Source: a virus
Taxonomy: Duplodnaviria > Caudoviricetes
DNA: 64,000 bases
Direction: 5' to 3' (one strand)
Virus record (IMG/VR): IMGVR_UViG_3300025316_001101
Shown piece by piece: positions 3,876-52,284 of the stretch. The notes beneath the pieces are model-generated. The model saw nothing but the letters and a program-made list of their open reading frames with translations. It was not told the origin of the DNA and searched no databases. The position numbers were made by a program, and so were the translations under genes. The stretch's first letter is position 1. Every line of letters begins with the position of its first letter.

Positions 3876-5102
3876 CTACTTAGCCGCCCGTCGCTCTTGA
3901 TTTCGGGCAATAATCTTCAAGGGCTTCTCAATGTTTTCCTCACCCTGTAAAAACGCCTTAATTAACGTCTTGGCGCAATGCAGGTGATCAAGATCGTATT
4001 GAGTGCCATCTTCGGCCACACCCTTATTGTCAATCAGGGCAGTAACCGCTTCCAGCCATTCCTTTCGCACCTTAACAGCCGTCAAAGGTTTGACATCGGT
4101 ATCGCCAGTGCTCTTGGCTGCTTTATCCAAATCTTTGGCAATCACCCGATTGGTCCGCTTCTTAGCCGTTTCTTCTTTGGCTTTTTCGTGATGCTCGATA
4201 CGATCCCGAGTTTCCGAAAGTTTTTTACGGACCTTGGTGGAGGGTTGTCCCATTGCGTCGGCCGCACGGGCTTCACCATCCAACTGTTCTTCTTCATCCT
4301 TGGCCTTGTCAATCTGCTCGTCGTGCTTCTTGAGACTAGCCTGGATACGAACGGCAGCTTCTTTAGAAGCATCGCCCAACAATTGCAACCGATGGCCCAC
4401 ATCAGGAATGGCAACTAATCTGATGGCCACCGTCCGATTGATCTGTTCATCGCAAAAAGCGTTGAAACATTTATCGTCCAATTGCAAGATTTCATCCGTC
4501 TGGCGCAGCCAAGCAACGCTTTTGCTGAGCACCCAACGGATATAATCGTCATCTTTCTTACAGTGTCGTAAGTGACGGACCAAAGCAGCCAAAGCACCTT
4601 CCCCAATGGACTTGCTTTCTTCATTGCTGCTAACGGCATGTTTAAGAGCCGTATCGTCGTCCATGTCATTAATATGGCAGACAACGTACTCATACACGTT
4701 TGCAGCCGGTTCCCGCTTGCCAGTAGCCGGATTGTGACAATTGGTATTGTCAGCACGCAATTTATCAATACTGCGTTTGCGGCGACTGCCACCGATCAAT
4801 TGGACCTTCTTACCGTCCTTGATCCATCGACAATCAAGGGGATGTTTTAGACCCTCGGTGCAAATGGCAGCCCGCAAGCTGTCCATTTCATCCCTGGAGC
4901 CACCCAATCCCATTTTTTGAGTGCCATTGGCAATATGACGAGGATTTTGATAAACGAATTCTTTGGCGTTCAGGTCAAACCCATCGTCAGCGAATTCAAC
5001 AAGATCATGTCTCACCTTATACACATCATCAAACATGTGGATGATGCCCTCTGGCAAGATCTTCTTGGACGGCAATTTTACCGTTTCAGTTTCAACAGAC
5101 AT
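3876..5102 (-). CDS. ParB/Srx-like N-terminal domain protein with coiled-coil C-terminus
   Basis: L..I..EGL.HPL...LIGGSRR motif; SD before ATG 5102. Confidence 0.7.
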   Translation of the reverse strand: MSVETETVKLPSKKILPEGIIHMFDDVYKVRHDLVEFADDGFDLNAKEFVYQNPRHIANGTQKMGLGGSRDEMDSLRAAICTEGLKHPLDCRWIKDGKKVQLIGGSRRKRSIDKLRADNTNCHNPATGKREPAANVYEYVVCHINDMDDDTALKHAVSSNEESKSIGEGALAALVRHLRHCKKDDDYIRWVLSKSVAWLRQTDEILQLDDKCFNAFCDEQINRTVAIRLVAIPDVGHRLQLLGDASKEAAVRIQASLKKHDEQIDKAKDEEEQLDGEARAADAMGQPSTKVRKKLSETRDRIEHHEKAKEETAKKRTNRVIAKDLDKAAKSTGDTDVKPLTAVKVRKEWLEAVTALIDNKGVAEDGTQYDLDHLHCAKTLIKAFLQGEENIEKPLKIIARNQERRAAK

Positions 5103-8469: not shown

Positions 8470-8489
8470 CTACTTTCTATTATACAATC

Positions 8490-8711
8490 TTAGCCCCAAA
8501 GATTTTGCGAACACACTGTCACTGCGGGCACATATGCCCCAGCAATTGGGTTGCACAAGAAGTTAATCTTCGGACATTGTGGATAGAATAATCTCCAGCA
8601 TACGTATTTTTGAATTACGACATCGCCATGCATGTTTCTGTGAACGCATTTGAAAACTTTATTTGTTCTACAAACATAGCCGCCTTCGTCAATTTGAGGA
8701 TTATAAGACAT
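8490..8711 (-). CDS. hypothetical protein
   Basis: 73-aa ORF with SD. Confidence 0.5.
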   Translation of the reverse strand: MSYNPQIDEGGYVCRTNKVFKCVHRNMHGDVVIQKYVCWRLFYPQCPKINFLCNPIAGAYVPAVTVCSQNLWG

Positions 8712-40785: not shown

Positions 40786-41265
40786 TTACGGCAACATTGT
40801 AATATTTAATGTTGTTTCTTCACCTTTTGCTGGTTCCGGTTCTTTCTTATCTTCTTCAACACGAACCAATCGCCACGGAAATATCCATCTCCATAATTTC
40901 CTCAATCGCATACTCAACGGCAAACTTTCAGGACCAGCAACGCCTTTCATTACCAACCACACCAAAAACAATATAACAGAAATCAAAATGAAGCTTATAC
41001 AAGCCGCAAAGAATTTGCCCACTTCCATCTTGAGCCCCGGCATAGGCTGCCACAACAGTTGTTCCCAATTCTGACCAGTGGAAGTAAGAGTAAAACTAAC
41101 AAACGGCATAATCAAATTTTCAGAAATTGATTTTGCCACATTATTCAATGCAGCACCGAGAATAAAGGCCACAATGAAATCAACCATTTGGCCTTTGAAT
41201 ACAAGTTGTTTATACTCTTTGATCTCTTTTTCAAAATCTTCTACGCTGATAAAACCCTTAGCCAT
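40786..41265 (-). CDS. mscL: large-conductance mechanosensitive channel-like protein
   Basis: EYKQLVFKGQMVDFIVAFILGAAL..VAKSI.ENLIMP, ...GKFFAACISFILI; start ATG 41265. Confidence 0.75.
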   Translation of the reverse strand: MAKGFISVEDFEKEIKEYKQLVFKGQMVDFIVAFILGAALNNVAKSISENLIMPFVSFTLTSTGQNWEQLLWQPMPGLKMEVGKFFAACISFILISVILFLVWLVMKGVAGPESLPLSMRLRKLWRWIFPWRLVRVEEDKKEPEPAKGEETTLNITMLP

Positions 41266-41266
41266 A

Positions 41267-41479
41267 CTAACATCCCCTAACTCCGACTCCTCCGCCTCTT
41301 TTATATGATAGTCTACCATTGCTAGAAGCTCGTCGATAACAACCTGTTTTTGGTGGTTTTGGGGGTGGCGTTGGACAATTCTTACCACAGCCACAACCGC
41401 AACCACCACATTGATTATCTGGCTTGTATTGACCGTGTGACATTCCAAGCCCCTTCCCCGTCACTGATGTTGCACTCAT
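41267..41479 (-). CDS. small Cys/Gly-rich protein
   Basis: CGGCGCGCG. Confidence 0.4.
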   Translation of the reverse strand: MSATSVTGKGLGMSHGQYKPDNQCGGCGCGCGKNCPTPPPKPPKTGCYRRASSNGRLSYKRGGGVGVRGC

Positions 41480-41762: not shown

Positions 41763-41997
41763 AAAGTCCTCGGCCGACAAGAAGCGTAGAGACGCCATTC
41801 CCTTTCGGGAAGTTATAGCCTTCACGCACGGACCCTTTCAGGTTACCGCCGTTCGAAACGCAATTAGATCTCCCCTTCGAGAGATCACCGGATTCAGTCG
41901 AAACTTACCGGCTTGTGCTGTCGCTTGCAGGTCGCCCTGTTTTGCTACCTTAGGACCATCATTGATGTAGTCCCCACTACATTCGGCCGAGGACTTT
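41763..41997 (-). ncRNA. structured ncRNA A with 23S rRNA H69-H71-like segments
   Basis: 15-bp terminal stem AAAGTCCTCGGCCGA/TCGGCCGAGGACTTT, then TTATT; several internal hairpins; GGTCCTAAGGTAGC; TTGCAA-N16-TATATT promoter upstream. Confidence 0.7.
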
Positions 41998-42015
41998 GTA
42001 TAATATAGCAGATTG

Positions 42016-42450
42016 TCAACGTTTTGCAAGAGGAGATGATGCAATAGCAACGAATTCTTGCCCGAACATCGTATCTTCAAGGGTGTACCGATATCCTTTA
42101 GGCTTCACGTATCGATCAAGCATCGCTCGATACAATCGTACTCGACTCGGTTCCTTGGCCAAGAATTTGATTATCCTGGGATATACTTTGTCTACGTATT
42201 CTCCCACCGCATTTGCTACTGTAGCGAATACTGGAATTTCGTCCCCCGTACCCGTAATACCATGTGAAGAAAGCTCTTTCGGTTTCATCAGTGTAAAACT
42301 CACATCTGTGACGCCATCATGGTGATCGAAATCGATATCATATTCTTTCCGATTGATCTTAAAGCTTCCAGCCCAATGTCCACCACTTTTTATTTGCCAT
42401 TGAATCGGCAAAGGATTATCAAACAATTCTAAGAATAATGTGAAATTCAT
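42016..42450 (-). CDS. hypothetical protein, paralog of 26011-26523
   Basis: TGTGD..VFATV, EPSRVRLY. Confidence 0.65.
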   Translation of the reverse strand: MNFTLFLELFDNPLPIQWQIKSGGHWAGSFKINRKEYDIDFDHHDGVTDVSFTLMKPKELSSHGITGTGDEIPVFATVANAVGEYVDKVYPRIIKFLAKEPSRVRLYRAMLDRYVKPKGYRYTLEDTMFGQEFVAIASSPLAKR

Positions 42451-42971
42451 CTTCTCACCAACTTCCCTTCCTTCTCAAGCTTTGGCACCAATGTGGGCTG
42501 CTTTTTATATCCCGTCCAAAGAGCCCATATAGGATTGTCTTTAGGAGGTCGAGAAGATTCATCGTCTGACAATTTTTCTAAATATGGTTCGGCCCACTTT
42601 CCAGCATACCATTGGCCAACCGATAACGGAACTTGTGTTACATCAGGACGTTTGAAATAATAATACTTCCAAACCCCAAACGCATCTGGCGAGACGTTCT
42701 TTCTATCAGACACGGCATAACCACCATTCGCTGTAATCTCTTCAATCATAATATCATAAATCAATGGACCATATCCTTTGGTGGCATCTGATTTCTCTAT
42801 GACATACATTGACTCGCCACTAAGATTTTTAGACTTATAGGCTTCAGCAGCACCATGAACTGGATCTCCGTCTAATAGAACGGTAATCTTGCTGCCTTTG
42901 TTTGATACTATGATGACTTGCCCTTGTGGGGGTTCATTCATCATCGCTTCTAGCCACTGTCTGAATTCCAT
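42447..42971 (-). CDS. GNAT-like protein
   Basis: KGYGPLIY..., S.DAFGVW. Confidence 0.55.
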   Translation of the reverse strand: MEFRQWLEAMMNEPPQGQVIIVSNKGSKITVLLDGDPVHGAAEAYKSKNLSGESMYVIEKSDATKGYGPLIYDIMIEEITANGGYAVSDRKNVSPDAFGVWKYYYFKRPDVTQVPLSVGQWYAGKWAEPYLEKLSDDESSRPPKDNPIWALWTGYKKQPTLVPKLEKEGKLVRR

Positions 42972-43000
42972 AGAAGTATTTAGCTTCTATAGAATAAAAG

Positions 43001-43071
43001 TGGGCGTTAGTGGAATCGAACCACTTTTTCCACCTTGTCACGGTGGTGTCTTGCCACTAGACCAAACACCC
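43001..43071 (-). tRNA. tRNA-Val(GAC)
   Basis: CCACC-GTGACAA-GGTGG. Confidence 0.88.
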
Positions 43072-43739
43072 TAAAAACATAAACTTTCGATTCCGCCTTC
43101 TATCATTTGTCTCAATCGAGTATTACATACATAAATCGTGCCCGTTCCATAAAGCATTTTACCTTTTTGCTTACCTCTCCAAACACCCTCTCTTGGTTTA
43201 TAACAAGTAAACTTTCTAAAATGATCATCTGTAAGCTGAACGATTTTTTCCTTCCACCATAACTTCAAATCACTCTCCGTCAGTTCATTTGCTGGATGGT
43301 AACCCACGGTAAATGTCATCTTAGCTAAATAACCGCCCTCTGCCAACCATCTTACTATCAACCTAATCATACGATAATCAGCATTTGCAATTGCAAACAC
43401 GTTCTTGTTTTTAGTACCCTCTCCCCAATACAAAGCACATATCACTCGAAAGTCAGCATCAATTTTTGCACGTTCTCTACCCTCTTGTCTGTATTGCTCA
43501 ATGCGAATTACAGAGTCTAAATGGTTGCGGTTATTGGCAGTGGCAAATTTAGCAGAAAACTTTTCTCTATTCAATTTAGCATTAGACTTTAGCAATGCAA
43601 TTTGTTTATCACTTAATTTAACATTCCTCACCCATGTAGAAATGGAACTTTTTGGACATCTCAAAATTTGAGAAATTTCTCTAACAGATTTGCCTTCTGA
43701 TCTTAATGCTATGGCTTGATTTTTTTCGTTTAATCTCAT
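43071..43739 (-). CDS. HTH protein, possible homing-endonuclease-like
   Basis: N-terminal HTH (SVREISQIL..SISTW), LYWGEGTK. Confidence 0.6.
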   Translation of the reverse strand: MRLNEKNQAIALRSEGKSVREISQILRCPKSSISTWVRNVKLSDKQIALLKSNAKLNREKFSAKFATANNRNHLDSVIRIEQYRQEGRERAKIDADFRVICALYWGEGTKNKNVFAIANADYRMIRLIVRWLAEGGYLAKMTFTVGYHPANELTESDLKLWWKEKIVQLTDDHFRKFTCYKPREGVWRGKQKGKMLYGTGTIYVCNTRLRQMIEGGIESLCF

Positions 43740-43800
43740 TTTGAACCTCCGATTAACTACATTTATATAGTATCGGAAGTTCAAAAAAATATTTCAATAA

Positions 43801-44046
43801 TTAAATACCCGCAAAATAATACCACACGCCTTTAATGTCCATCAGTTCCACATCAGAACCTACTGAAGGAATTGCATATTCACAACACCCCGTTGATCCG
43901 CAATCGCAACCACAGCTTAAAGGATACACCCAATCGGCCATCCCCTCTACTTTTATTCCACCTTTGTGATCCGGGTCATGATTATCAATGACTTTCATTA
44001 TTCCACTCCAATTCCGTCTTTTTACAAACTGTACAATATTTAACAC
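43801..44046 (-). CDS. hypothetical protein
   Basis: 81-aa ORF. Confidence 0.45.
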   Translation of the reverse strand: MLNIVQFVKRRNWSGIMKVIDNHDPDHKGGIKVEGMADWVYPLSCGCDCGSTGCCEYAIPSVGSDVELMDIKGVWYYFAGI

Positions 44047-44275
44047 CTTCCATGCTCGGTTTACTACTGGTAACTAGCGTACCAGGATCTCCGCACTTCT
44101 TGTTTCGTTCTCTTGCGGCTAATTGCTCAATAAATTCCCGCAATTCTTTAACCGGCCCATCAACTAAAACAGGTTCGGAAATTTGTATTGCCAATTGGCT
44201 ATTAACATGAGCTTGAATCTGCTCTATCATTGAATCAATTGCCGGAATACCCGGTGCTGCCATATTTTTATCCAT
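43985..44275 (-). CDS. hypothetical protein
   Basis: 96-aa ORF. Confidence 0.45.
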   Translation of the reverse strand: MDKNMAAPGIPAIDSMIEQIQAHVNSQLAIQISEPVLVDGPVKELREFIEQLAARERNKKCGDPGTLVTSSKPSMEGVKYCTVCKKTELEWNNESH

Positions 44276-44546
44276 AACATTCCTCTAAAATCTGAATCCA
44301 CTTCCGAATACCCTTTGATGTCTGCTCCATTGGATGTAAAAATCCGGCCGCATGACAGGCTTGCTTGTGAAAATCTAAATCACTTTTCACAGCTTCATTC
44401 TTAGCATATTCTTTTAATAACAAAGAATGATTACCATTCCAACCCTCGGCTGCTGCTATCGATTGGAACTCTAAAATGTCTTGTTTTGCATATTGTTCTT
44501 GAAATTGCCACATAATTGTCTCCCACTTAATATAGTGGAAAGACAA
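44268..44546 (-). CDS. hypothetical protein
   Basis: 92-aa ORF. Confidence 0.45.
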   Translation of the reverse strand: MSFHYIKWETIMWQFQEQYAKQDILEFQSIAAAEGWNGNHSLLLKEYAKNEAVKSDLDFHKQACHAAGFLHPMEQTSKGIRKWIQILEECYG

Positions 44547-44552
44547 TAAAAG

Positions 44553-44625
44553 AGCCCCCTGTCGGAATCGAACCGATACATTTTCACGTTACGAGGGTGA
44601 TGTACTGCCATTGTACGAAGGGGGC
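44553..44625 (-). tRNA. tRNA-Thr(CGT)
   Basis: loop CT-CGT-AA, GCCCCCT/AGGGGGC. Confidence 0.85.
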
Positions 44626-44626
44626 A

Positions 44627-45067
44627 TTAGAAACGTGGCATAGATGGTTGCCTGGGCATCTTCGGAGCCTTTGGTGCCTCTGGAGTTTTTAATAATTTAT
44701 CGATTTCCGTTTCATTTTTCAAAACGTAAACATAACAGGCATAAATGGGTAAATCATTAGGATCTCCCTGTTTGCCCTGAATTTGTCGATATTCTACATC
44801 CAACTTCGTTCTTGGATCTGTGTCAAATCTAAGAAAATCCTTCAAATTACTCATAACCGAATTAACAAATCCCGAACTGCCTGTAATACGAAGACCATCT
44901 TCACGGAAACGAGTGCCTGTGTGATGCTTAGAAATAGGGGATGGTTGCAAAGGTAAATTCGTCTGCAACCCGCTCCAGAATGTAAGAACATCCTTTCGAC
45001 GTGCCTTCCACGGCTTTGGCATGCCGTCACGCATTTCTTGTTCTTCTAAGTAATCACTGAATGTCAT
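44627..45067 (-). CDS. hypothetical protein
   Basis: MTFSDYLEE start after CTATATA motif. Confidence 0.6.
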   Translation of the reverse strand: MTFSDYLEEQEMRDGMPKPWKARRKDVLTFWSGLQTNLPLQPSPISKHHTGTRFREDGLRITGSSGFVNSVMSNLKDFLRFDTDPRTKLDVEYRQIQGKQGDPNDLPIYACYVYVLKNETEIDKLLKTPEAPKAPKMPRQPSMPRF

Positions 45068-45113
45068 GCAAATATATAGAGACTCAATTCGTAAAAATGA
45101 CCTATATAACAAT

Positions 45114-45275
45114 ATGGCACTTATGACATTCAAAGAATATTGGTCTCAACAAGCGATTATCAACGCTCAACATAAGAAAATACCGCCATGTGCAATTTGC
45201 CATAAAAGAAAAGGCGAACGCACCATTCATGGCGAATGGGTCTGTCTCAAATGTCGCCCATTCAATAAAAAGTAG
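45114..45275 (+). CDS. small Zn-finger protein
   Basis: CAIC..CLKC. Confidence 0.5.
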   Translation: MALMTFKEYWSQQAIINAQHKKIPPCAICHKRKGERTIHGEWVCLKCRPFNKK

Positions 45276-45343
45276 GCCGTACAAGAATTGAACTTGTTCC
45301 TGCGGTTTCGAAGACCGTTATGCATCCGGCACACCCACAGCCC
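45273..45343 (-). tRNA. tRNA-Arg(TCG)
   Basis: ACGGT-CTTCGAA-ACCGC. Confidence 0.82.
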
Positions 45344-45345
45344 AT

Positions 45346-46005
45346 TTATTTTCTAAATTGCCAACTAACTATCGTTCCCCTATGCTCATTTACTACCTGC
45401 CTAATACCCCTCTCTAGTTTTAATATGGCTATTTTACAAGATTCGTCTACATGGTCTTGAATCATCGGCTGGTATTTTTCCTTATAAGGAATCCTCATCA
45501 TTACACAGATGCCAACACTAATGTCAACTCTGGTCCTATTCCCCTCTCTAACCATAATCAGAGCCGTATCATATTGTTTAAGCATTCGTACTGGTTTGGT
45601 CAAACCAGTACGAATGACCATGCTTTCTTGATCGATACGAATCTTATTGTTGAGCGCAATAACCGATTTGCTAAGCTCTGGATCATAAGGACGAATTTTC
45701 ATTAATACGTCCGTATGCACACACCATTGCAACGGCCTAACTTTCTTTAACTCAAAATTGGGCTTCGCCATCTCTTGAGATATGACCTTCCCAGAGGTAA
45801 TCTCCACCAATTCCGTTGAAGCATTGCTACGCACAAATACCTTGCGTACCGTATCATAATCATCATTCAAATAAAACGATGCCGACCGATTGGCCGTAAC
45901 CGCACATTCAGATGATACTAAGTCTAAGAAGGGTTTCGGACATATAATGGCCGAAACCCCTATGATACACAATAACACAACAGTTGATAATACAAAATAT
46001 CTCAT
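45346..46005 (-). CDS. membrane-anchored/secreted hypothetical protein
   Basis: signal-like N-terminus from ATG 46005. Confidence 0.6.
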   Translation of the reverse strand: MRYFVLSTVVLLCIIGVSAIICPKPFLDLVSSECAVTANRSASFYLNDDYDTVRKVFVRSNASTELVEITSGKVISQEMAKPNFELKKVRPLQWCVHTDVLMKIRPYDPELSKSVIALNNKIRIDQESMVIRTGLTKPVRMLKQYDTALIMVREGNRTRVDISVGICVMMRIPYKEKYQPMIQDHVDESCKIAILKLERGIRQVVNEHRGTIVSWQFRK

Positions 46006-46008
46006 AAG

Positions 46009-46079
46009 AGCGCCTAATCGGAGTCGAACCGATACGTGAACCTTGGCAAGGTTCCAGGCTACCGCTACATCATAGGCGC
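46009..46079 (-). tRNA. tRNA-Gly(GCC)
   Basis: GAACC-TTGCCAA-GGTTC, U73. Confidence 0.9.
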
Positions 46080-46116
46080 AAATGTTCTTTTTATGTATGC
46101 ACGTTTTATTAAAAAG

Positions 46117-46192
46117 TGCGAGGGACGGGACTCGAACCCGCAACCGTCTGGTTGGAAGCCAGATGCTCTAGTACCAATTGAGCTACCCTCGC
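46117..46192 (-). tRNA. tRNA-Gly(TCC)
   Basis: TCTGG-CTTCCAA-CCAGA; A73 is atypical. Confidence 0.85.
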
Positions 46193-46249
46193 TTATTAAA
46201 GACCCTTTAGCATCCCACGAAAAATTCAATTACGAATGTATATAATTAC

Positions 46250-46639
46250 ATGAAAACATTAAGCGAATACATCAATTCTTCGGACCCCTCGGATTTAATC
46301 AATAAGTTGTTCGAAGCTCGTCAAACAACACATGTACTTCACCTTAAAACCAAATCCTATGCTCAACATATGGCCCTGGATTCGTTTTATGGAGACATTC
46401 TTGGCTTAATAGATGAATTCGTAGAAGTCTATCAAGGCCAATATGGCATAATCGATCAAGCTAGCAGCATTTCCGTAGACAAGAGTGCTGATCCGGTTAA
46501 ATACCTTGAAGAACTATGTGCGTTTGTTAAAAAGGCCCGTAAAGCATTAGCAGAAGAAGATACTCATCTACAGAACATTGTGGATGAAATTACTGCCACA
46601 ACTTACAGAACCCTATACAAACTGAAGTTCCTTAAATAG
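46250..46639 (+). CDS. ferritin/Dps-like four-helix protein
   Basis: H..HL.T.SYA.H.AL..FY..D.F.E.YQG.YG..TLYKL.FL. Confidence 0.75.
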   Translation: MKTLSEYINSSDPSDLINKLFEARQTTHVLHLKTKSYAQHMALDSFYGDILGLIDEFVEVYQGQYGIIDQASSISVDKSADPVKYLEELCAFVKKARKALAEEDTHLQNIVDEITATTYRTLYKLKFLK

Positions 46640-47468
46640 CCAACCGTTTGAAGATATATTCACATACCGCTTCGGCAGTGAAATAGTGATGATATAGTTT
46701 TCTAATCTTCTTTTGCTTTGCAGCAATCATCTCTGGCGTATGACTGTCTAAAATCTCAGGAAGACGATCTATATCTCGAACATTAATGCTTACAGCCAAT
46801 CCAGACCAATCCAATATTTCTTTATACGGCAACCATTCAATATCATCCCATACATACACCGGAATTGCACCCATTCCCAAAGATTCATACAATCGGAAAG
46901 ATGTTCTCCCGTAACCCCGTGGACATAAAGAAAACACAGATTCATTCAATTGTTTGAAAAATGATTCGTAAGGAAGCTTTTCACTAAACGACCAGTTGGG
47001 CCGCATCATGGTCATTAATTTACCAACCGCATGACCCCTGGCACTTTCACATGCCATTATCGATCCCGTAAAACACAATTGAATTGGTCGTTCAATGTCT
47101 TTCCTTTGATAAGGCTGTAAATCCTCTTTCAACAATGGAATTGGAATGTTACCCACTCCACCAGCCGCAAATACCAACACGTCAGCCCACTTGGGAATAG
47201 ACTCAAGAATCCCATCGTCATTCTGAACAACTGTGAAATACTTCTTGTCTTGTCTCAATGTCTGATTGAGCCATAACGTAGTCCACAGAGGAGCCCTAAA
47301 ACCATTGGCAAGATAATTGTCGGTCCAACAAATAGGAATGTAGATCCTATCGGTTTTTACGCCATGCTCCGCATAATATTTCTGAAAAGCATTCTCAATC
47401 CACGGGCCAGAATAGCCAGCCCACGTATGCGGCGGAGCCTGTGTTGGAACTTGCAATTTTTCTACCAT
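46632..47468 (-). CDS. exostosin-like glycosyltransferase (GT47-like)
   Basis: FSLCPRGYGRTSFRLYESL..GAIPV. Confidence 0.85.
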   Translation of the reverse strand: MVEKLQVPTQAPPHTWAGYSGPWIENAFQKYYAEHGVKTDRIYIPICWTDNYLANGFRAPLWTTLWLNQTLRQDKKYFTVVQNDDGILESIPKWADVLVFAAGGVGNIPIPLLKEDLQPYQRKDIERPIQLCFTGSIMACESARGHAVGKLMTMMRPNWSFSEKLPYESFFKQLNESVFSLCPRGYGRTSFRLYESLGMGAIPVYVWDDIEWLPYKEILDWSGLAVSINVRDIDRLPEILDSHTPEMIAAKQKKIRKLYHHYFTAEAVCEYIFKRLAI

Positions 47469-47470
47469 AG

Positions 47471-47541
47471 AGCGGCTAGGGGGAATCGAACCCCCGTCAT
47501 CAGATTGGAAATCTGAGGTAATACCATTATACGACAGCCGC
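47471..47541 (-). tRNA. tRNA-Gly(TCC)
   Basis: TCAGA-TTTCCAA-TCTGA. Confidence 0.9.
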
Positions 47542-47600
47542 AATGGACCTCGCCCGGAGGGCGAGGTCATCTTTTTCCACTCATGGTGGATAAGTCTAAG

Positions 47601-47672
47601 AGCTAGCGGTGGGTACTGCCCCCACTTGATCTTGTTTACAAAACAAGCCCATGACTTTTCTGGCACGCTAGC
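47601..47672 (-). tRNA. tRNA-Thr(TGT)
   Basis: CTTGT-TTTGTAA-ACAAG; atypical T-loop GGCAGTA. Confidence 0.75.
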
Positions 47673-47673
47673 A

Positions 47674-48273
47674 TTAGCCCAATATAATCTTCAACATCTT
47701 TGCCATAATATCGGCCTGTTGAATCAACAAAGGCTTCAAATCTTCAATCATCTGTTCGTAATTCTTTTCACAATTAAGATGAATCTCTTCGCCTTTATAT
47801 ACAACCTTTAGTTCTTTAACTTCTTCAGACGGTCCTTTATGACCCAACAGATCTTTAACAGCCATACGAACCTCATCTAACTGCAATCCCAAGTTGACCA
47901 ACACCTGGGCTGCCACGCCTTCGCTCTCTCGTACCAATCCTAACAAAAGATGTTCCGTGCCCACATGATTGTCATTCAAAAGACGAGCCTCTTCCATTGA
48001 ATATTCAACCACCTTTTTTACTCTTGGTGTGTGTGGCAACTTGCCCATTGTGACCATATCTGGCCCTTGTTGGATTAATTTTTCTACTTCTAGTCTAACT
48101 TTGCGAAGATCGATATCAAACTGCTCCAACACATGAGCAGCAATACCCGATCCTTCTTTTATTAGACCCAAAAGAAGATGTTCGGTTCCAATATATTCGT
48201 GATTGAAACGCTGGGCCTCTTGATTGGCCAGCATCATAACTTTTCTAGCTCTATCTGTAAATCGTTCGTACAT
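47674..48273 (-). CDS. ClpC N-terminal (Clp repeat) domain-only protein
   Basis: MYERFTDRARKVM.LANQEAQRFNHEYIGTEHLLLGL, second EHLLLGL repeat, no AAA+ domain. Confidence 0.92.
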   Translation of the reverse strand: MYERFTDRARKVMMLANQEAQRFNHEYIGTEHLLLGLIKEGSGIAAHVLEQFDIDLRKVRLEVEKLIQQGPDMVTMGKLPHTPRVKKVVEYSMEEARLLNDNHVGTEHLLLGLVRESEGVAAQVLVNLGLQLDEVRMAVKDLLGHKGPSEEVKELKVVYKGEEIHLNCEKNYEQMIEDLKPLLIQQADIMAKMLKIILG

Positions 48274-48288
48274 AAAAAATCTCCTTAA

Positions 48289-48362
48289 TAGGTCACGTGG
48301 GAATCGAACCCACATTTACACTTTTAGAGAGTGTTGCTCTGAGCCAATTGAACTAGTGACCC
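48289..48362 (-). tRNA. amber suppressor tRNA (anticodon CTA)
   Basis: ACACT-CTCTAAA-AGTGT, intact D/T arms, G1.U72, A73. Confidence 0.88.
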
Positions 48363-48366
48363 TCAG

Positions 48367-48439
48367 TGGGCGATACAGGACTCGAACCTGTAACCCCCTC
48401 GGTGTAAACGAGGTGCGCTAACCATTGCGCCAATCGCCC
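48367..48439 (-). tRNA. tRNA-Val(TAC)
   Basis: CCTCG-TTTACAC-CGAGG. Confidence 0.92.
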
Positions 48440-48443
48440 TCAA

Positions 48444-48737
48444 TTATCCCTCTAGCATCCGTCTACAGTGATTGCTTATCTCTATAACTTCTGTCATTTC
48501 TTGCGGAGTCAACTCTATCCCGTTTTCGGCTGCCTCCATTCGTAAGCCACTCACTGTCGCCGTTGACATGTCTCCATGTTTCCACTCGCCACGCTCTAGT
48601 GATTCACTCACTTGTTTCAATAGCCGTATCATAGCTATGACACCCTTGGCAGCTTGCATCCTATTTGGGTATGCATTGCGAAACTTTTCATTATGGAGTA
48701 TTCTTCGTATTTTTCTTTTGTCAGTTGATGATAACAT
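48444..48737 (-). CDS. hypothetical protein
   Basis: ORF between tRNAs. Confidence 0.55.
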   Translation of the reverse strand: MLSSTDKRKIRRILHNEKFRNAYPNRMQAAKGVIAMIRLLKQVSESLERGEWKHGDMSTATVSGLRMEAAENGIELTPQEMTEVIEISNHCRRMLEG

Positions 48738-48759
48738 ATTGTTCTCCACATTATAATAG

Positions 48760-48831
48760 TGACCCTACGGGGAATCGAACCCCGATTTACAGATTGAAGG
48801 TCTGTCGTCCTAACCGTTAGACGATAGGGCC
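48760..48831 (-). tRNA. tRNA-Glu(TTC)
   Basis: ACAGA-CCTTCAA-TCTGT. Confidence 0.9.
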
Positions 48832-48835
48832 ATAA

Positions 48836-48928
48836 TGGGCAACCCGGCTCTGAGACCGATCTACTCAGGGAACGTATTTTTTATCGTGGTTTCGCTGACC
48901 ACCGGTTTTCAAACATTTTTGGTTGCCC
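48836..48928 (-). ncRNA. tRNA-like structured RNA of unknown class
   Basis: GGGCAACC/GGTTGCCC-A termini; internal GTGGT-CAGCGAA-ACCAC and CTGAG-N9-CTCAG arms. Confidence 0.4.
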
Positions 48929-48931
48929 AAG

Positions 48932-49026
48932 TGGGCGGGGCAGGGCTCGAACCTGCGACATTCGGAGCGTAATCAAGCATACACCTGATCCGTTTTCCGA
49001 TGCTCTGCCAACTGAGCTACCCGCCC
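48932..49026 (-). tRNA. tRNA (probably Val, TAC) with 22-nt hairpin insertion in the anticodon loop
   Basis: perfect acceptor, D and T arms; 29-nt loop with GATCAGG-TGTATG-CTTGATT. Confidence 0.65.
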
Positions 49027-49202
49027 TAACGCATTGTACTCCAATAATTATTTCCATCAAAACACAATGGAAGCTTTAAGGCAATACTAAAAGCCCCACT
49101 TCCTGAAAAATTTGATGACCAATAGTATTGCACACGAAATCCGACACTTGATCTAGAAGAATTTGTGCCAATACTCACTCCACTCAAAGACCATATTTTC
49201 AT

Positions 49203-49421
49203 TTAATCGTCTGCACATTCGTATTCTGTTCCACAACTTTGGCACATTACTCCACTCGGCATTCCCAAGAACTCGCCATCATCGTCTTCTTCAATGCCTA
49301 AATCGCTTCTCATCTCTGCCATTTCTTCTTCTGTTTTTTCAATGCGTATCGCACGTACAAAGTTTTCCTCTCCGCACGCATCGCAGTCCCATACAAATGC
49401 TGGGTGTAAATATGCTTCCAT
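49203..49421 (-). CDS. small Zn-binding protein
   Basis: CDAC..CQSC. Confidence 0.55.
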   Translation of the reverse strand: MEAYLHPAFVWDCDACGEENFVRAIRIEKTEEEMAEMRSDLGIEEDDDGEFLGMPSGVMCQSCGTEYECADD

Positions 49422-49631
49422 TGTTATCCTCCCCGTTTGGCCACACTACAATAGTATGATACATTCACACTATAGCTGCCAAGTTGTGCCTTTATACTGC
49501 AATGACCGTTACTACCAAATGCTGCTGAACCAAAACAATTGCCAGCACTATTCACAAAAGCCACTGCACACCATTTATATCTTGATTTAACACCTAAAGG
49601 ATGTACCATCATTCTCATGTTATTACCTTAG

Positions 49632-49704
49632 TGGAGACTACGGGAGTCGAACCCGTGCTCTTCTGATTGCGAACCAGACGCTTTCCCAATTAAGCTAAGT
49701 CCCC
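49632..49704 (-). tRNA. tRNA-Ala(CGC)
   Basis: G3.U70, loop TT-CGC-AA. Confidence 0.9.
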
Positions 49705-49960
49705 ATGAGATTTATGTATAATATATTTAGATAAATCAGTCAATGACAAACCTATATTATTCTTCTTATACTAGCTTGATGTCGATCATTCAACCATGCA
49801 GATTGTAAATTGCTACCGGCACTCCCCCATAATATAGACCTTTTAGAAAATCCAGAATGGACCCTATTAAGCCCATAAGCCCAACCTGCTGGAAAATGTT
49901 TTACGGACCACGGTACACGCCATCGAGAAGACCGCAAGGACCACATGGAAGGTCTAAATT

Positions 49961-50188
49961 TCATCCCCACAGCCTTCTTTTTATAGATGTGTGTTGACCC
50001 GGAGTGAACCCGGATGAGTGTGTGGCCTCGGCCGCTTCATAAATTTTATGGATTGCAGTGCTGCCACTATGAGCAAATCTTGAATTCCAAGAATAGCCGG
50101 GCATGTGGTTTCCAACTGACCAGCAAGCTCGCCCACGTGCCCAATATGAATTATGAAATTGCCACAGCGGTCGATGAAATGGTTTCAA
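49961..50188 (-). CDS. hypothetical protein
   Basis: 75-aa ORF with TTG start. Confidence 0.35.
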   Translation of the reverse strand: MKPFHRPLWQFHNSYWARGRACWSVGNHMPGYSWNSRFAHSGSTAIHKIYEAAEATHSSGFTPGQHTSIKRRLWG

Positions 50189-50212
50189 TATTTGTTACCG
50201 CCTCTCCATTAT

Positions 50213-50340
50213 GTGAATTACCCCGCCCCTAAAGAGGGCGGGGCTTCCGTTCCAATCAGCAGCCCACTCAAAGCGGGTCTTATGCCAAGACAAACGGCTC
50301 TCCCTGTATTCCAACAGGGGTTTATACCTTCATGTGAATA
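50213..50340 (-). ncRNA. putative TnpB omega/reRNA scaffold
   Basis: structured 3' region from tnpB end to the TCAC boundary; 5' end unknown. Confidence 0.6.
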
Positions 50341-51461
50341 TTAGTTGCTGCGTTTTCATCCCTATCGTGATTAGTGAAGCAGTTCCAACAAGTCCAAGTC
50401 CTATCAGTAAGTTCCAAGTCCTTGTTCTGCCAACCACATACGGAGCATAATTGCGAACTTGGATACCATTTATCCACTTGTCGCAACTCACGACCATACC
50501 ACTCGGCTTTGTATTTTAACTTTTGGAAGAACGAGGAGAAGCAAGCATCGGCTTGCTTCCTGTGATACACCTTCTCCCTCCATCGCTCAATTTTACGAAC
50601 CTCTGGGTCTGCGTTCCTCAACATATCACTTACACAAAGAGTTTCAACGACAATGACTTGGTTCTCGTCAATTATTTTTCTACTTACTTTGTGTTGAAAA
50701 TCCTCACGAATGTTGTGAATGTGCTGCTCCAACTTGTTTAATTTAAGGTATGCTTTCGCTCTACCTTTGCTGTCTTTCTGTGTTCTATTCTTTGCTTTCG
50801 TCAAGAACTTCAATCTGTTTCTATATTTTGTTTTTGGTAGTGGGTTCTCATACTTTGTTCCATCGCTGCCCACTATTCCATGAACATTCATGTCCAATCC
50901 AATAGTCTTATCAGTAGTTGGAAGTGGAGTCATTACCTTGTTGGCTGTAATGCTCACGAAGTATTGTCCTGCTTTATTCTTGGAAATGGTGGCAAACTCA
51001 ATCTCGCCTTCAAGTGGTCGGTGGAGGATGATGGGGATGCCTTGCTTGAACTTAGGAATGCTCAACTTACCATCAATGACTTTGATATTCTGTAATACCT
51101 TGAATGATTGTTTGCCGTGTTTTTTCTTGAAACGAGGGAAGCCACATTTACCTTTATGTTTGCCTTGTGCTTTTAATTTAACCTTACGGAAGAAGTTGTC
51201 ATATCCATTTTGTAGTGCTTTGGCTGAGTATTGTAATGCTTGACTTCCTGCTTCCTTCAACCAGTCGTATGTTTTCTTTAACTCTGGGATAGATGTAGCA
51301 TTGTCATAGTAGTTCAATGATTTGTTCTCACCTTTATAAGCATTGATGCGTTGTTCAAGGAAATGGTTATACAAAAACCTCACACAACCAAAATGTTTGG
51401 CGAGTAGAACTTGTTGTTCCTCGGTGGGCATCAACCTATATTTGTAAGAAATTAAGGTCAT
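50322..51461 (-). CDS. tnpB: RNA-guided endonuclease TnpB
   Basis: YKYRLMPT..FG..RF.YN HTH, RuvC GLD / VVE / DRD, C4 Zn finger. Confidence 0.93.
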   Translation of the reverse strand: MTLISYKYRLMPTEEQQVLLAKHFGCVRFLYNHFLEQRINAYKGENKSLNYYDNATSIPELKKTYDWLKEAGSQALQYSAKALQNGYDNFFRKVKLKAQGKHKGKCGFPRFKKKHGKQSFKVLQNIKVIDGKLSIPKFKQGIPIILHRPLEGEIEFATISKNKAGQYFVSITANKVMTPLPTTDKTIGLDMNVHGIVGSDGTKYENPLPKTKYRNRLKFLTKAKNRTQKDSKGRAKAYLKLNKLEQHIHNIREDFQHKVSRKIIDENQVIVVETLCVSDMLRNADPEVRKIERWREKVYHRKQADACFSSFFQKLKYKAEWYGRELRQVDKWYPSSQLCSVCGWQNKDLELTDRTWTCWNCFTNHDRDENAATNIHMKV

Positions 51462-51637
51462 TTTGCTCCTGCGGGCATTAATGTTTTGTTCGTTTGATTT
51501 TCAACCCAATCGTGTATTAACAGTCGTATCGCTTCGCTCATATTGAGGTAATTACCATCGCACTTATCCTTGAACTTCTTGAATAATGTCGGATGGACAC
51601 GAATAGTCAAACTATGTTCAGCATTTTCTTTTGTCAT
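51458..51637 (-). CDS. ribbon-helix-helix protein (not in ORF track)
   Basis: 59 aa: LTIRVHPTLFKKFK..C..NMSEAIRLLI; stop overlaps tnpB ATG. Confidence 0.75.
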   Translation of the reverse strand: MTKENAEHSLTIRVHPTLFKKFKDKCDGNYLNMSEAIRLLIHDWVENQTNKTLMPAGAK

Positions 51638-51911
51638 ACACTTTATATAGTGTTGCCTTACAATTTTTTCACAACAAAATCAAAATTATTTTTTCAAGCC
51701 GTTTTCAATGGCTTTTATGCCGTTTTAGAGGGGAAGGCATTAGACCAAAGTTATTCAGCGTATGTCTAACTAAATTACATTATGACGCCTTACATCCCGC
51801 TACCCTAAAGAGGTTTGCCCTGTTCATTCGGTCGCTCGCTGACGCTCGCTTCCTCACTCACAGAGCAAACATTCCTTCGGAATGTAGGGGTTTTACGGCG
51901 TCCCAGATAAA

Positions 51912-52212
51912 TTTCGGCCCGACAAGGATGAATGCATGATGTTTTCTCAGGCTCTACCGGCATCGACCAGTGTGTTGTTACACCAAAGGGCGACTATCCG
52001 ATGTGGTCGGCTTCCCAGCATCATCCTCATTCTAGAAATGAGGGAGAGGCTGCACACCCACTCTTTGAATGATGGCTACTTCTAGGCCAACATCCTGGTT
52101 GTCTTAGCCTTTTGCAAAGCCCTTACTTCCCACTAAAACACCAAACAACTGCAAACGCAGATGAGACGAACTTCACTTCTGTTATGTAGTCCCACTCGCA
52201 TTCGAGCCGAAA
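51912..52212 (-). ncRNA. structured ncRNA B containing a 23S rRNA GTPase-associated-centre (H42-H44) mimic
   Basis: terminal stem TTTCGGCTCGA/TCGGGCCGAAA; ACCAGGATGTTGGCCTAGAAGTAGCCATCATTCAAAGAGT-[76 nt]-GTGTAACAACACACTGGT. Confidence 0.8.
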
Positions 52213-52213
52213 G

Positions 52214-52284
52214 TGGAGCCACGGGGAATCGAACCCCGACTTCAGCCTTGCAAAGGCTGCACACTCCCGTTATGTTATGGCCCC
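52214..52284 (-). tRNA. tRNA-Ala(TGC)
   Basis: G3.U70, CAGCC-TTTGCAA-GGCTG. Confidence 0.92.

Follow-up and report, generated by a model that had tools for sequence, protein, structure and literature searches.

In this study we describe two RNAs, here called A and B, which are encoded in the last 64 kb, read on the reverse strand, of a 259-kb virus record of IMG/VR (IMGVR_UViG_3300025316_001101); this stretch of 64,000 nucleotides (nt) as a whole is referred to as the window. Both RNAs sit inside the transfer RNA (tRNA) array of the window, on the minus strand like the tRNAs. To judge from their sequences, the frame that A and B have in common is the known Ro60/Rsr-binding handle of the bacterial-type Y RNAs YrlA and YrlB, and A and B are probably phage-encoded Y RNA-like RNAs, predicted to bind Ro60, whose modules resemble ribosomal RNA (rRNA). 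That the frame is a Y RNA handle is concluded from three observations: a covariance model of the handle finds units beside Ro60 genes, the helices of these units covary, and units of related phages match the YrlA model of Rfam. Since the modules are rRNA-like and no tRNA model matched inside either RNA, A and B count as Y RNA-like and fall outside YrlA in the strict sense. A preliminary description of this DNA had taken them for one family of non-coding RNAs with a conserved frame and exchangeable modules, which agrees with our results, as the covariance model finds more members. Its view of the frame as a new scaffold was not borne out: the Rfam models YrlA and YrlB match units with this frame, and a Ro60 gene adjoins their array.

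Chen et al. 2014 (PMC4201824) described Y RNAs beside rsr, the gene of the ring protein Ro60, for over 250 bacteria and for 22 phages. They are built of a handle and a variable module, which is tRNA-like in YrlA, and a GNCGAAN0-1G motif near the 5' end probably contacts Ro60 (PMC4201824). The binding of two phage Yrl RNAs by a phage Ro60 has been the subject of a structural study (PMC12135203). Ro60 presumably owes its specificity to Y RNAs, through their variable modules. A literature search turned up no account of Y RNAs whose modules are rRNA-like. To our knowledge, the modules described in bacteria and phages are tRNA-like only.

The shared handle

Three elements make up the handle. P1, the terminal helix, leads into an asymmetric internal loop, whose 5' strand carries GAAUG(C/U) and whose 3' strand carries (C/U)CUUGU; beyond the loop comes a second helix, P2, with UACAU after it. 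RNA A, assigned by its end motifs, fold and profile score, is laid out as follows:

41763-41997, minus strand: RNA A, 235 nt, Y RNA-like, module distal to P2
41984-41997, minus strand: P1 5' strand AAAGUCCUCGGCCG, pairing with 41763-41776
41965-41983, minus strand: 5' handle motif AAUGUAGUGGGGACUACAU, including the P2 5' strand and the conserved UACAU
41970-41977, minus strand: P2 5' strand GUGGGGAC
41794-41964, minus strand: cargo, about 170 nt, with nine 7-14-nt words of 23S 1894-1985 (word matching)
41777-41793, minus strand: 3' handle, comprising the P2 strand, GCUU and the conserved CUUGU
41786-41793, minus strand: P2 3' strand GUCUCUAC
41777-41781, minus strand: 3' motif CUUGU
41763-41776, minus strand: P1 3' strand CGGCCGAGGACUUU, pairing with 41984-41997
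42002-42029, minus strand: promoter-like site, TTGCAA, 16 nt, TG-extended TATATT (consensus scan only)

RNA B was delimited by end motifs, fold, profile and a copy in L098, a metagenome contig of a close relative:

51912-52212, minus strand: RNA B, 301 nt, Y RNA-like, complete minimal handle plus cargo
52161-52212, minus strand: 5' handle, comprising the P1 strand, AAUGCGA and the P2 hairpin
52203-52212, minus strand: P1 5' strand UUUCGGCUCG, pairing with 51912-51921
52184-52202, minus strand: 5' motif AAUGCGAGUGGGACUACAU
52189-52195 and 52161-52167, minus strand: P2 hairpin, GUGGGAC paired with GUCUCAU
51912-51930, minus strand: 3' handle, comprising CAUC, CUUGU and the P1 3' strand
51922-51926, minus strand: 3' motif CUUGU
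51912-51921, minus strand: P1 3' strand CGGGCCGAAA, pairing with 52203-52212

The 5' and 3' ends quoted for both RNAs in the preliminary description are present here on the minus strand, and in each RNA they close a terminal helix, as had been proposed. P1 comprises 14 base pairs (bp) in A and 10 bp in B, the predicted fold has the ends paired in both, and the outer pairs are compensatory, C-G in A versus U-A in B. P1 is followed in both RNAs by AAUG(U/C) and, some letters later, by G(U)GGGAC and UACAU; in both, CUUGU precedes the 3' strand of P1. This likeness exceeds chance. The 5' pattern matches twice in the window, at A and B only, versus no match in 100 shuffles. Eight sites in the 259-kb record satisfy a composite rule that requires the 5' motif, the 3' motif and no fewer than 7 contiguous pairs in P1. 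They are the six standard units, A and B, and they lie on the same strand; the total over 30 block-shuffled genomes was one site.

The two RNAs carry their cargo at different places. In A, P2 (GUGGGGAC/GUCUCUAC) encloses the cargo, the same topology as in the Rfam consensus of YrlA. In B, P2 is capped by a 21-nt loop that starts with UACAU, as in minimal units of the array described below, and about 230 nt are inserted between P2 and CCUUGU, that is in the 3' strand of the internal loop. RNA B is thus a complete minimal Y RNA carrying an insertion. The promoter-like site of A stops 5 nt before P1, which places the predicted start a few nt upstream of P1, and a U-run, CUUUUUAUU, lies directly 3' of P1.

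The 259-kb record represents about half a genome, which bounds all statements below on genes not found in it. It contains an orthologue of Ro60/Rsr (L003:3092-4801), an open reading frame (ORF) of 569 amino acids (aa) with the Pfam domains vWA_Ro60 (1.7e-17) and TROVE. The alignment of the protein with human RO60 spans residues 22-531 (E 7.6e-16), and that with Rsr of D. radiodurans covers the C-terminal half (residues 280-534); the Ro60 of phage phiLo is among its sequence matches in PDB. The ORF ends about 160 nt upstream of a dense array of handles, which a scan of the whole record for handle-end motifs located at genome positions 128,960-130,060; the scan also found such ends at 161,890-162,020, and both places lie outside the window. 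At least nine handle-bearing RNAs follow directly after the Ro60 gene. Six units (U1, U2, U5, U7, U8 and U9) share the topology of A and B, the smallest having 60 nt.

Four further Y-like RNAs, T1-T4, at genome positions 128,961-129,690 and 161,888-162,016 (L003:4961-5690; L004 about 3889-4017) are tRNA-shaped. They end in a 7-bp acceptor-like stem and have T and D arms; their P1 is loop-capped, and the handle replaces the anticodon arm. The tRNA model of Rfam matched T1 with 43.8 bits, treating 61 nt of the anticodon loop as an insert. T1-T4 are a natural circular permutation of the YrlA design. Outside the window, a divergent permuted handle was observed at genome positions 186,780-186,835 (region 186,676-186,840; L015 about 8,475-8,640), with the elements CCCUUGU, a hairpin, GAAUAC, ACAGGUC, UACAA and the partner GACUUGU, behind a promoter-like site TTGACT-17-TATAAT. 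It is perhaps another handle-bearing RNA, the 13th, at a great distance from rsr. In total the record contains at least 12-13 handle-bearing units including A and B: besides a Ro60 orthologue of its own, the phage has at least 10 handle RNAs other than these two. A single phage would accordingly have twelve or more RNAs built on one handle, and in two of them rRNA look-alikes stand in for the tRNA-like part.

When Rfam was run with E-value thresholds instead of gathering scores, minimal units matched two Y RNA models from end to end, YrlB with 29 bits (E 0.003) and YrlA with 25 bits (E 0.011); the letters in common are CGAAUGC, CUAC and CUUGUCG. In three loci of relatives, units just downstream of Ro60 genes matched YrlA over its full length with 59, 56 and 48 bits (E 3e-11 to 4e-8). 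Two of the three (L017 and L019) visibly carry T- and D-arm sequences; relatives of this phage hence possess YrlA-type units with tRNA-like modules.

In the preliminary description, a covariance model that finds no further members was to count against the family; further members were found. The model used here, R1, was built from five minimal units. In the record it finds a sixth, U7 (36.8 bits). It also finds 11 units in 8 other phage loci, at most a few kb away from the Ro60 homologues there; these loci had been located via the Ro60 protein (42-55% identity). At E up to 0.1 it gave no match in 263 kb from 30 unrelated phage loci. When 17 units are aligned, both partners vary in 15 of the 16 pairs, and 90% of the cells are paired, versus 57% when shuffled and at most 51% with the partners slid. 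About 15 unpaired or semi-conserved letters (GAAUGC, GG.CUACAU, CUUGUC) are kept, whereas the stems show free variation. When five phage records with a related Ro60 were searched with A and B by BLAST, the matches were handle-sized only. A metagenome scan with the 5' motif yielded mostly chance matches, besides one close relative with B (L098) and a few ordinary small Y RNAs.

As R1 cannot span the cargo of A and B, half-handle and cargo-deleted profiles were used to place the two RNAs relative to the 17 units. With a 5'-half profile made of these units without A or B, B (E 0.005) and A (E 0.15) come right after the array units, and the next match over the whole genome has E 2.7. With a sequence-only profile of the whole handle, also built without A or B, and with the cargo deleted in silico, B scores 27.7 bits (E 3e-7) and A 18.0 bits (E 3.5e-4; E-values for a genome-sized database), and none of 400 shuffled versions was reported. 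These profiles ignore the pairing in P1 and P2, which is additional evidence. At the conserved positions A and B agree letter for letter with the handle consensus. The Ro-contact motif GNCGAAN0-1G is fully matched in A (GCCGAAUG) and at 7 of 8 positions in B (CUCGAAUG), and both have CUUGUC on the 3' strand. A MAFFT alignment of full-length A and B with the minimal units misaligned the 3' ends and was left unused.

Compared with YrlA and YrlB (RF02553, RF02565), A and B have the same paired ends, a GNCGAAN0-1G-type 5' motif with CUUGUC at the 3' side, and the division into handle and module; several Y RNAs per genome, a Ro60 orthologue in the same genome and an occurrence in phages are common to both as well. 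They differ in having rRNA-like modules, in lying 77-88 kb from rsr in a tRNA array, in the module of B, which sits in the 3' strand of the loop and not distal to P2, in the number of handle units in this genome (at least 12-13) and in scores below the gathering thresholds of Rfam. Thermus phage phiLo (PMC12135203; PDB 9KOP, 9L5Y) likewise encodes a Ro60 and Y-like RNAs with a CGAA motif, but these are two small Yrl RNAs adjoining the gene, and no rRNA-like module is described. In D. radiodurans, a Y RNA module tethers Rsr to PNPase (RYPER) and gates the ring, and Rsr plays a role in 23S maturation (PMC4201824). The Rsr-Yrn1-PNPase complex thus provides a working model of a partner tethered by a module, together with a link between Ro60 and 23S metabolism. 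It differs in that its module is tRNA-like and binds PNPase, whereas no PNPase or RNase PH was found in the 259-kb record.

Metazoan Y RNAs have a terminal stem with a conserved bulged helix and differ in their loop modules. The 5' GGUCCGA(A/U)GGUAGUG and 3' CUUGAC of hY1, hY3, hY4 and hY5 presumably resemble CCGAAUGUAGUGGGG and CUUGUC of the RNAs studied here. We know of no report of rRNA mimicry by metazoan Y RNAs.

The rRNA-like modules

The preliminary description had ascribed rRNA-like cargo to both RNAs. For B this is supported by a match of the Rfam model of large subunit rRNA (LSU) to 51963-52106 at model positions 1085-1152 (36 bits, E 1e-7); for A it applies at the level of short words only. 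BLAST placed the cargo match of B at E. coli 23S 1039-1088. The LSU match, the identities and a nucleotide change in L098 define the following parts, in which H denotes helices of 23S rRNA:

51966-52099, minus strand: core of the RNA B cargo, mimic of the 23S GTPase-associated centre (H42-H44)
52060-52099, minus strand: H43 part, 34 of 40 positions identical to E. coli 1051-1090, A1067 kept
51985-52059, minus strand: structured insert, 75 nt
51966-51984, minus strand: H44-like arm, 13 of 19 positions identical, A1095 kept

In 23S rRNA, H42-H44 form the GTPase-associated centre, which binds uL11 and uL10 and docks translation GTPases, and E. coli 1051-1108 is the 58-mer that binds uL11 and thiostrepton. 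RNA B reads U1072, U1092 and A1099, versus C, C and G in E. coli; we take this as an established variant of the base triple 1092/(1072-1099). The RNA B copy in L098 is 98.7% identical, its flanks 92-98%. Two of the four differences turn the H43 pair G1062-C1076 (52088/52074) into U-A. The H43 pairing of RNA B is under selection.

A scan of IMG/VR with the H43 34-mer found 15 loci. In 14 of them only an isolated H43-like piece of about 34 nt is present, often right after tRNAs (loci L031-L043 and L045); in 4 of these 14 (L033, L037, L040 and L042) an H44-like arm follows after a variable insert of roughly 60-130 nt. These free-standing mimics contain the same H43-like piece as B and likewise often lie beside tRNAs, but are handle-less, whereas the mimic of B is embedded in a Y RNA handle: a search of the 14 loci for the handle found none. 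With the phage Ro60 as the query, tblastn gave no match in the loci holding a GTPase-centre mimic or 23S words, and no vWA domain of Ro60 was found in five H43-mimic phage records, two of them complete. Conversely, the H43 motif was absent from five phage records with a related Ro60. As the mimic occurs in phages without handle or Ro60, and phages with related Ro60 lack H43, RNA B is a fusion of two RNA families that also exist apart. It thereby links two poorly understood classes of phage RNAs, the Y-like RNAs and the mimics of the GTPase-associated centre. What is new is this connection: the frame of A and B is, by sequence, the handle of the rsr array, and B joins this handle to the free-standing mimic.

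The likeness of A to rRNA is of a different kind. RNA A shares 23 7-mer matches with 23S 1895-1995, versus 1.6 expected from shuffles (maximum 10 in 500). Nine words of 7-14 nt were identified, AAUGAUGG, GGUCCUAAGGUAGC (23S 1921-1934), CGACCUGCA, GGUAAGUU, AACGGCGG, CUAUAAC, GAAUGGCGU, CUUGUCGG and CCGGUAA, and their order is not collinear with 23S. Local alignment of A with E. coli 23S scored 70.5, versus 63.3 +/- 5.6 for shuffles, and is not significant as a collinear match; H69, H70 and H71 with their loops were not found in collinear arrangement in the cargo. Rfam gave no match to RNA A, including LSU, at E up to 10. Neither the IMG/VR scan nor the metagenome scan with the 5' motif revealed a homologue of A; in IMG/VR, all that the 18-mer of A retrieved was genuine 23S or short pieces without relation to A. 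The rRNA likeness of A therefore appears real as words and is unproven as structure.

Isolated copies of 23S 1921-1938 (GGUCCUAAGGUAGCGAAA) occur in unrelated viral contigs (L046, L051, L053, L054, L055, L048, L050 and L056). We take this sequence to be half of the I-CeuI site. In L046, L051 and L053 the copy lies in a conserved hairpin-like context beside a tRNA, and a 305-kb phage contains a compact H70-like string, GGUCCUAAGGUAGCAAAAAGAUCCUUGUUUUGAUCGAAUG (L048:4500-4620).

Possible function and other explanations

A possible interpretation follows the published model of Y RNAs (PMC4201824, PMC12135203): by means of its handle the RNA would be taken up by Ro60, which would stabilise it and may couple it to 3'-5' exonucleases of the host. 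The module would then pick the partner that is to be tethered or titrated. In the case of B this partner would be a protein or small molecule which recognises the GTPase-associated centre, the module offering the uL11/uL10/GTPase-docking surface. The module of A would offer pieces of the 23S H69-H71 region, in scrambled order and distal to P2 as in YrlA. Domains of RtcB, uL11 and RNase PH/PNPase were not found in the 259-kb record; any partners would hence be host proteins. A more far-reaching proposal, which we hold only tentatively and think rather unlikely, is that large phages use Ro60 and the handle as a display chassis for tRNA bodies, the GTPase-associated centre and H69-H71 pieces. As decoys bound to Ro60, these copies would attract factors that recognise the ribosomal sites, for example uL11/uL10, defence proteins that target ribosomes, proteins of the stringent response or thiopeptide-type compounds, and would then sequester them or pass them to exonucleases. 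The same proposal leaves room for the handle itself to descend from or imitate 23S H70/H71. Concrete questions can now be asked about the role of phage Ro60 and about the partners of the modules, the candidates for B being uL11, uL10 and thiostrepton.

Instead of being a Y RNA handle, the frame could be a circularly permuted mimic of 23S H70/H71 that acts independently of Ro60, A and B then being pure ribosome mimics throughout. A resemblance of the frame to permuted H70/H71 had already been pointed out in the preliminary description, and as far as the letters are concerned it stands: CCUUGUCGG and CGAAUG flank a hairpin in both, H71 in 23S and P1 in the handle, where the order is CCUUGU, then P1, then GAAUG. 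RNA A also carries AAUGAUGG, CGACCUGCA and GAAUGGCGU from the same stretch of 23S, and the phage locus L048 contains GGUCCUAAGGUAGCAAAAAGAUCCUUGU-UUUGAU-CGAAUG, a compact H70-like string. The register, however, differs from the 23S structure in Rfam, in which AAAUUCCUU is a bulge 5' of H71 (GUCGGG-UAAGU-UCCGAC) and UGCACGAAU follows single-stranded: there, H71 includes G1945 and U1946 in its pairing, and GAAUG is set off from H71 by seven additional letters. In view of this mismatch we treat the likeness as a letter-level resemblance, structural mimicry being unproven. Moreover, units whose cargo is not rRNA-like and YrlA RNAs of the tRNA-like type have the same frame; it accompanies Ro60 genes in various phages and matches the Y RNA models of Rfam, which makes a mimic independent of Ro60 very improbable.

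The location of A and B in the tRNA array, 77-88 kb from rsr, could also mean that the handle is a stability or processing clamp for small RNAs released from tRNA transcripts, with no role of Ro60 for A and B. The start of B directly after a tRNA or tRNA-like gene, here and in the relative L098, would fit such a clamp, as would the occurrence of the GTPase-centre mimic without handle or Ro60 in other phages. Yet a clamp needs the stem only, and about 15 loop letters are the same as in the rsr-linked units while the stems vary, so that we regard this explanation as improbable. Finally, A and B might be non-functional debris, i. e. fragments of host 23S rDNA captured via recombination or a mobile element whose terminal repeats form the ends. 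The scrambled 23S words of A, an IS605-type element abutting B and the short isolated words of 23S 1921-1938 in other viral contigs agree with this. The ends, however, pair within each RNA, differ between the RNAs and do not form repeats; the sequence of B is 98.7% identical in the relative and includes a compensatory change of a pair, in contrast to neighbouring DNA with 92-98% identity; the mobile element is absent from the relative and begins 5 nt past B, so it arrived later; and A has its own promoter-like site and U-run. Debris is thus extremely improbable.

The identification of A and B as Y RNA-like RNAs has to be weighed against several points that count against it. Model R1, searched directly over the genome, did not report A or B, the cargo being too long for the model, and in Rfam cmscan neither was matched by YrlA or YrlB, again with a long cargo. 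The sequence-only score of A, 18 bits, is modest. The gathering scores of Rfam are 69 and 97, versus 25-29 bits for the minimal units and 48-59 bits for the YrlA units of the relatives, whose E-values are nevertheless significant in both cases. Published Y RNAs lie within a few kb of rsr, as opposed to 77-88 kb for A and B, which are encoded on the same strand as rsr; at least nine units with the same handle do, however, lie within a few kb of rsr on that strand. The cargo of A is without homologue, and its fold and rRNA mimicry are without covariation support. The cargo of B sits at an unusual place in the handle and may interfere with Ro60 binding. Public RNA runs contain only small shares of the sampled words. 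The circularisation, self-cleavage and trans-splicing considered in the preliminary description left no sign: no Rfam model of a self-cleaving ribozyme, group I or group II intron or circular RNA matched either RNA at E up to 10. If A and B are Y RNAs, searches that are limited to the neighbourhood of rsr, or that use models intolerant of inserts, miss members of the family.

Neighbouring genes and mobile elements

RNA B is preceded by a tRNA gene:

52213-52284, minus strand: tRNA-Ala(UGC), whose 3' end directly abuts P1 of RNA B

In L098 the place of this tRNA-Ala(UGC) of about 71 nt is taken by a different, 96-nt tRNA-like gene (L098:1706-1801) with an abnormal anticodon loop (ARAGORN 'tcag'), which also lies directly before RNA B. 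The presence of a tRNA or tRNA-like gene directly before B in both cases suggests a release by tRNA 3' processing, which probably makes the 5' end of RNA B.

On its other side, RNA B is followed after 5 nt, behind TTTAT, by an IS200/IS605-type element of 1.7 kb (50213-51906, minus strand). It encodes a TnpB of 379 aa (OrfB_IS605, Cas12f1-like TNB). L098 lacks the element, and TTTAT continues there straight into ATAATGGAGAGG. A second full copy, with 75% identity, is located at genome positions 178143-179817, and several copies of the structured left end (about 130-220 nt) are present in the 259-kb record.

The public DNA runs in which this phage sequence occurs are freshwater or lake metagenomes. 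Among the differences listed for the contig-type runs that were compared, none falls inside A or B. The window contains 28-30 tRNA genes on the minus strand. The array includes an amber-type tRNA with the anticodon CUA (48289-48362, minus strand; labelled Pyl by ARAGORN), which hints at recoding or suppression of TAG in the phage. The ORF just downstream of RNA A (40786-41448, minus strand) codes for the domain of a large-conductance mechanosensitive channel (MscL), matched in Pfam with E 1.4e-17; it is unusual to see such a gene in a phage.

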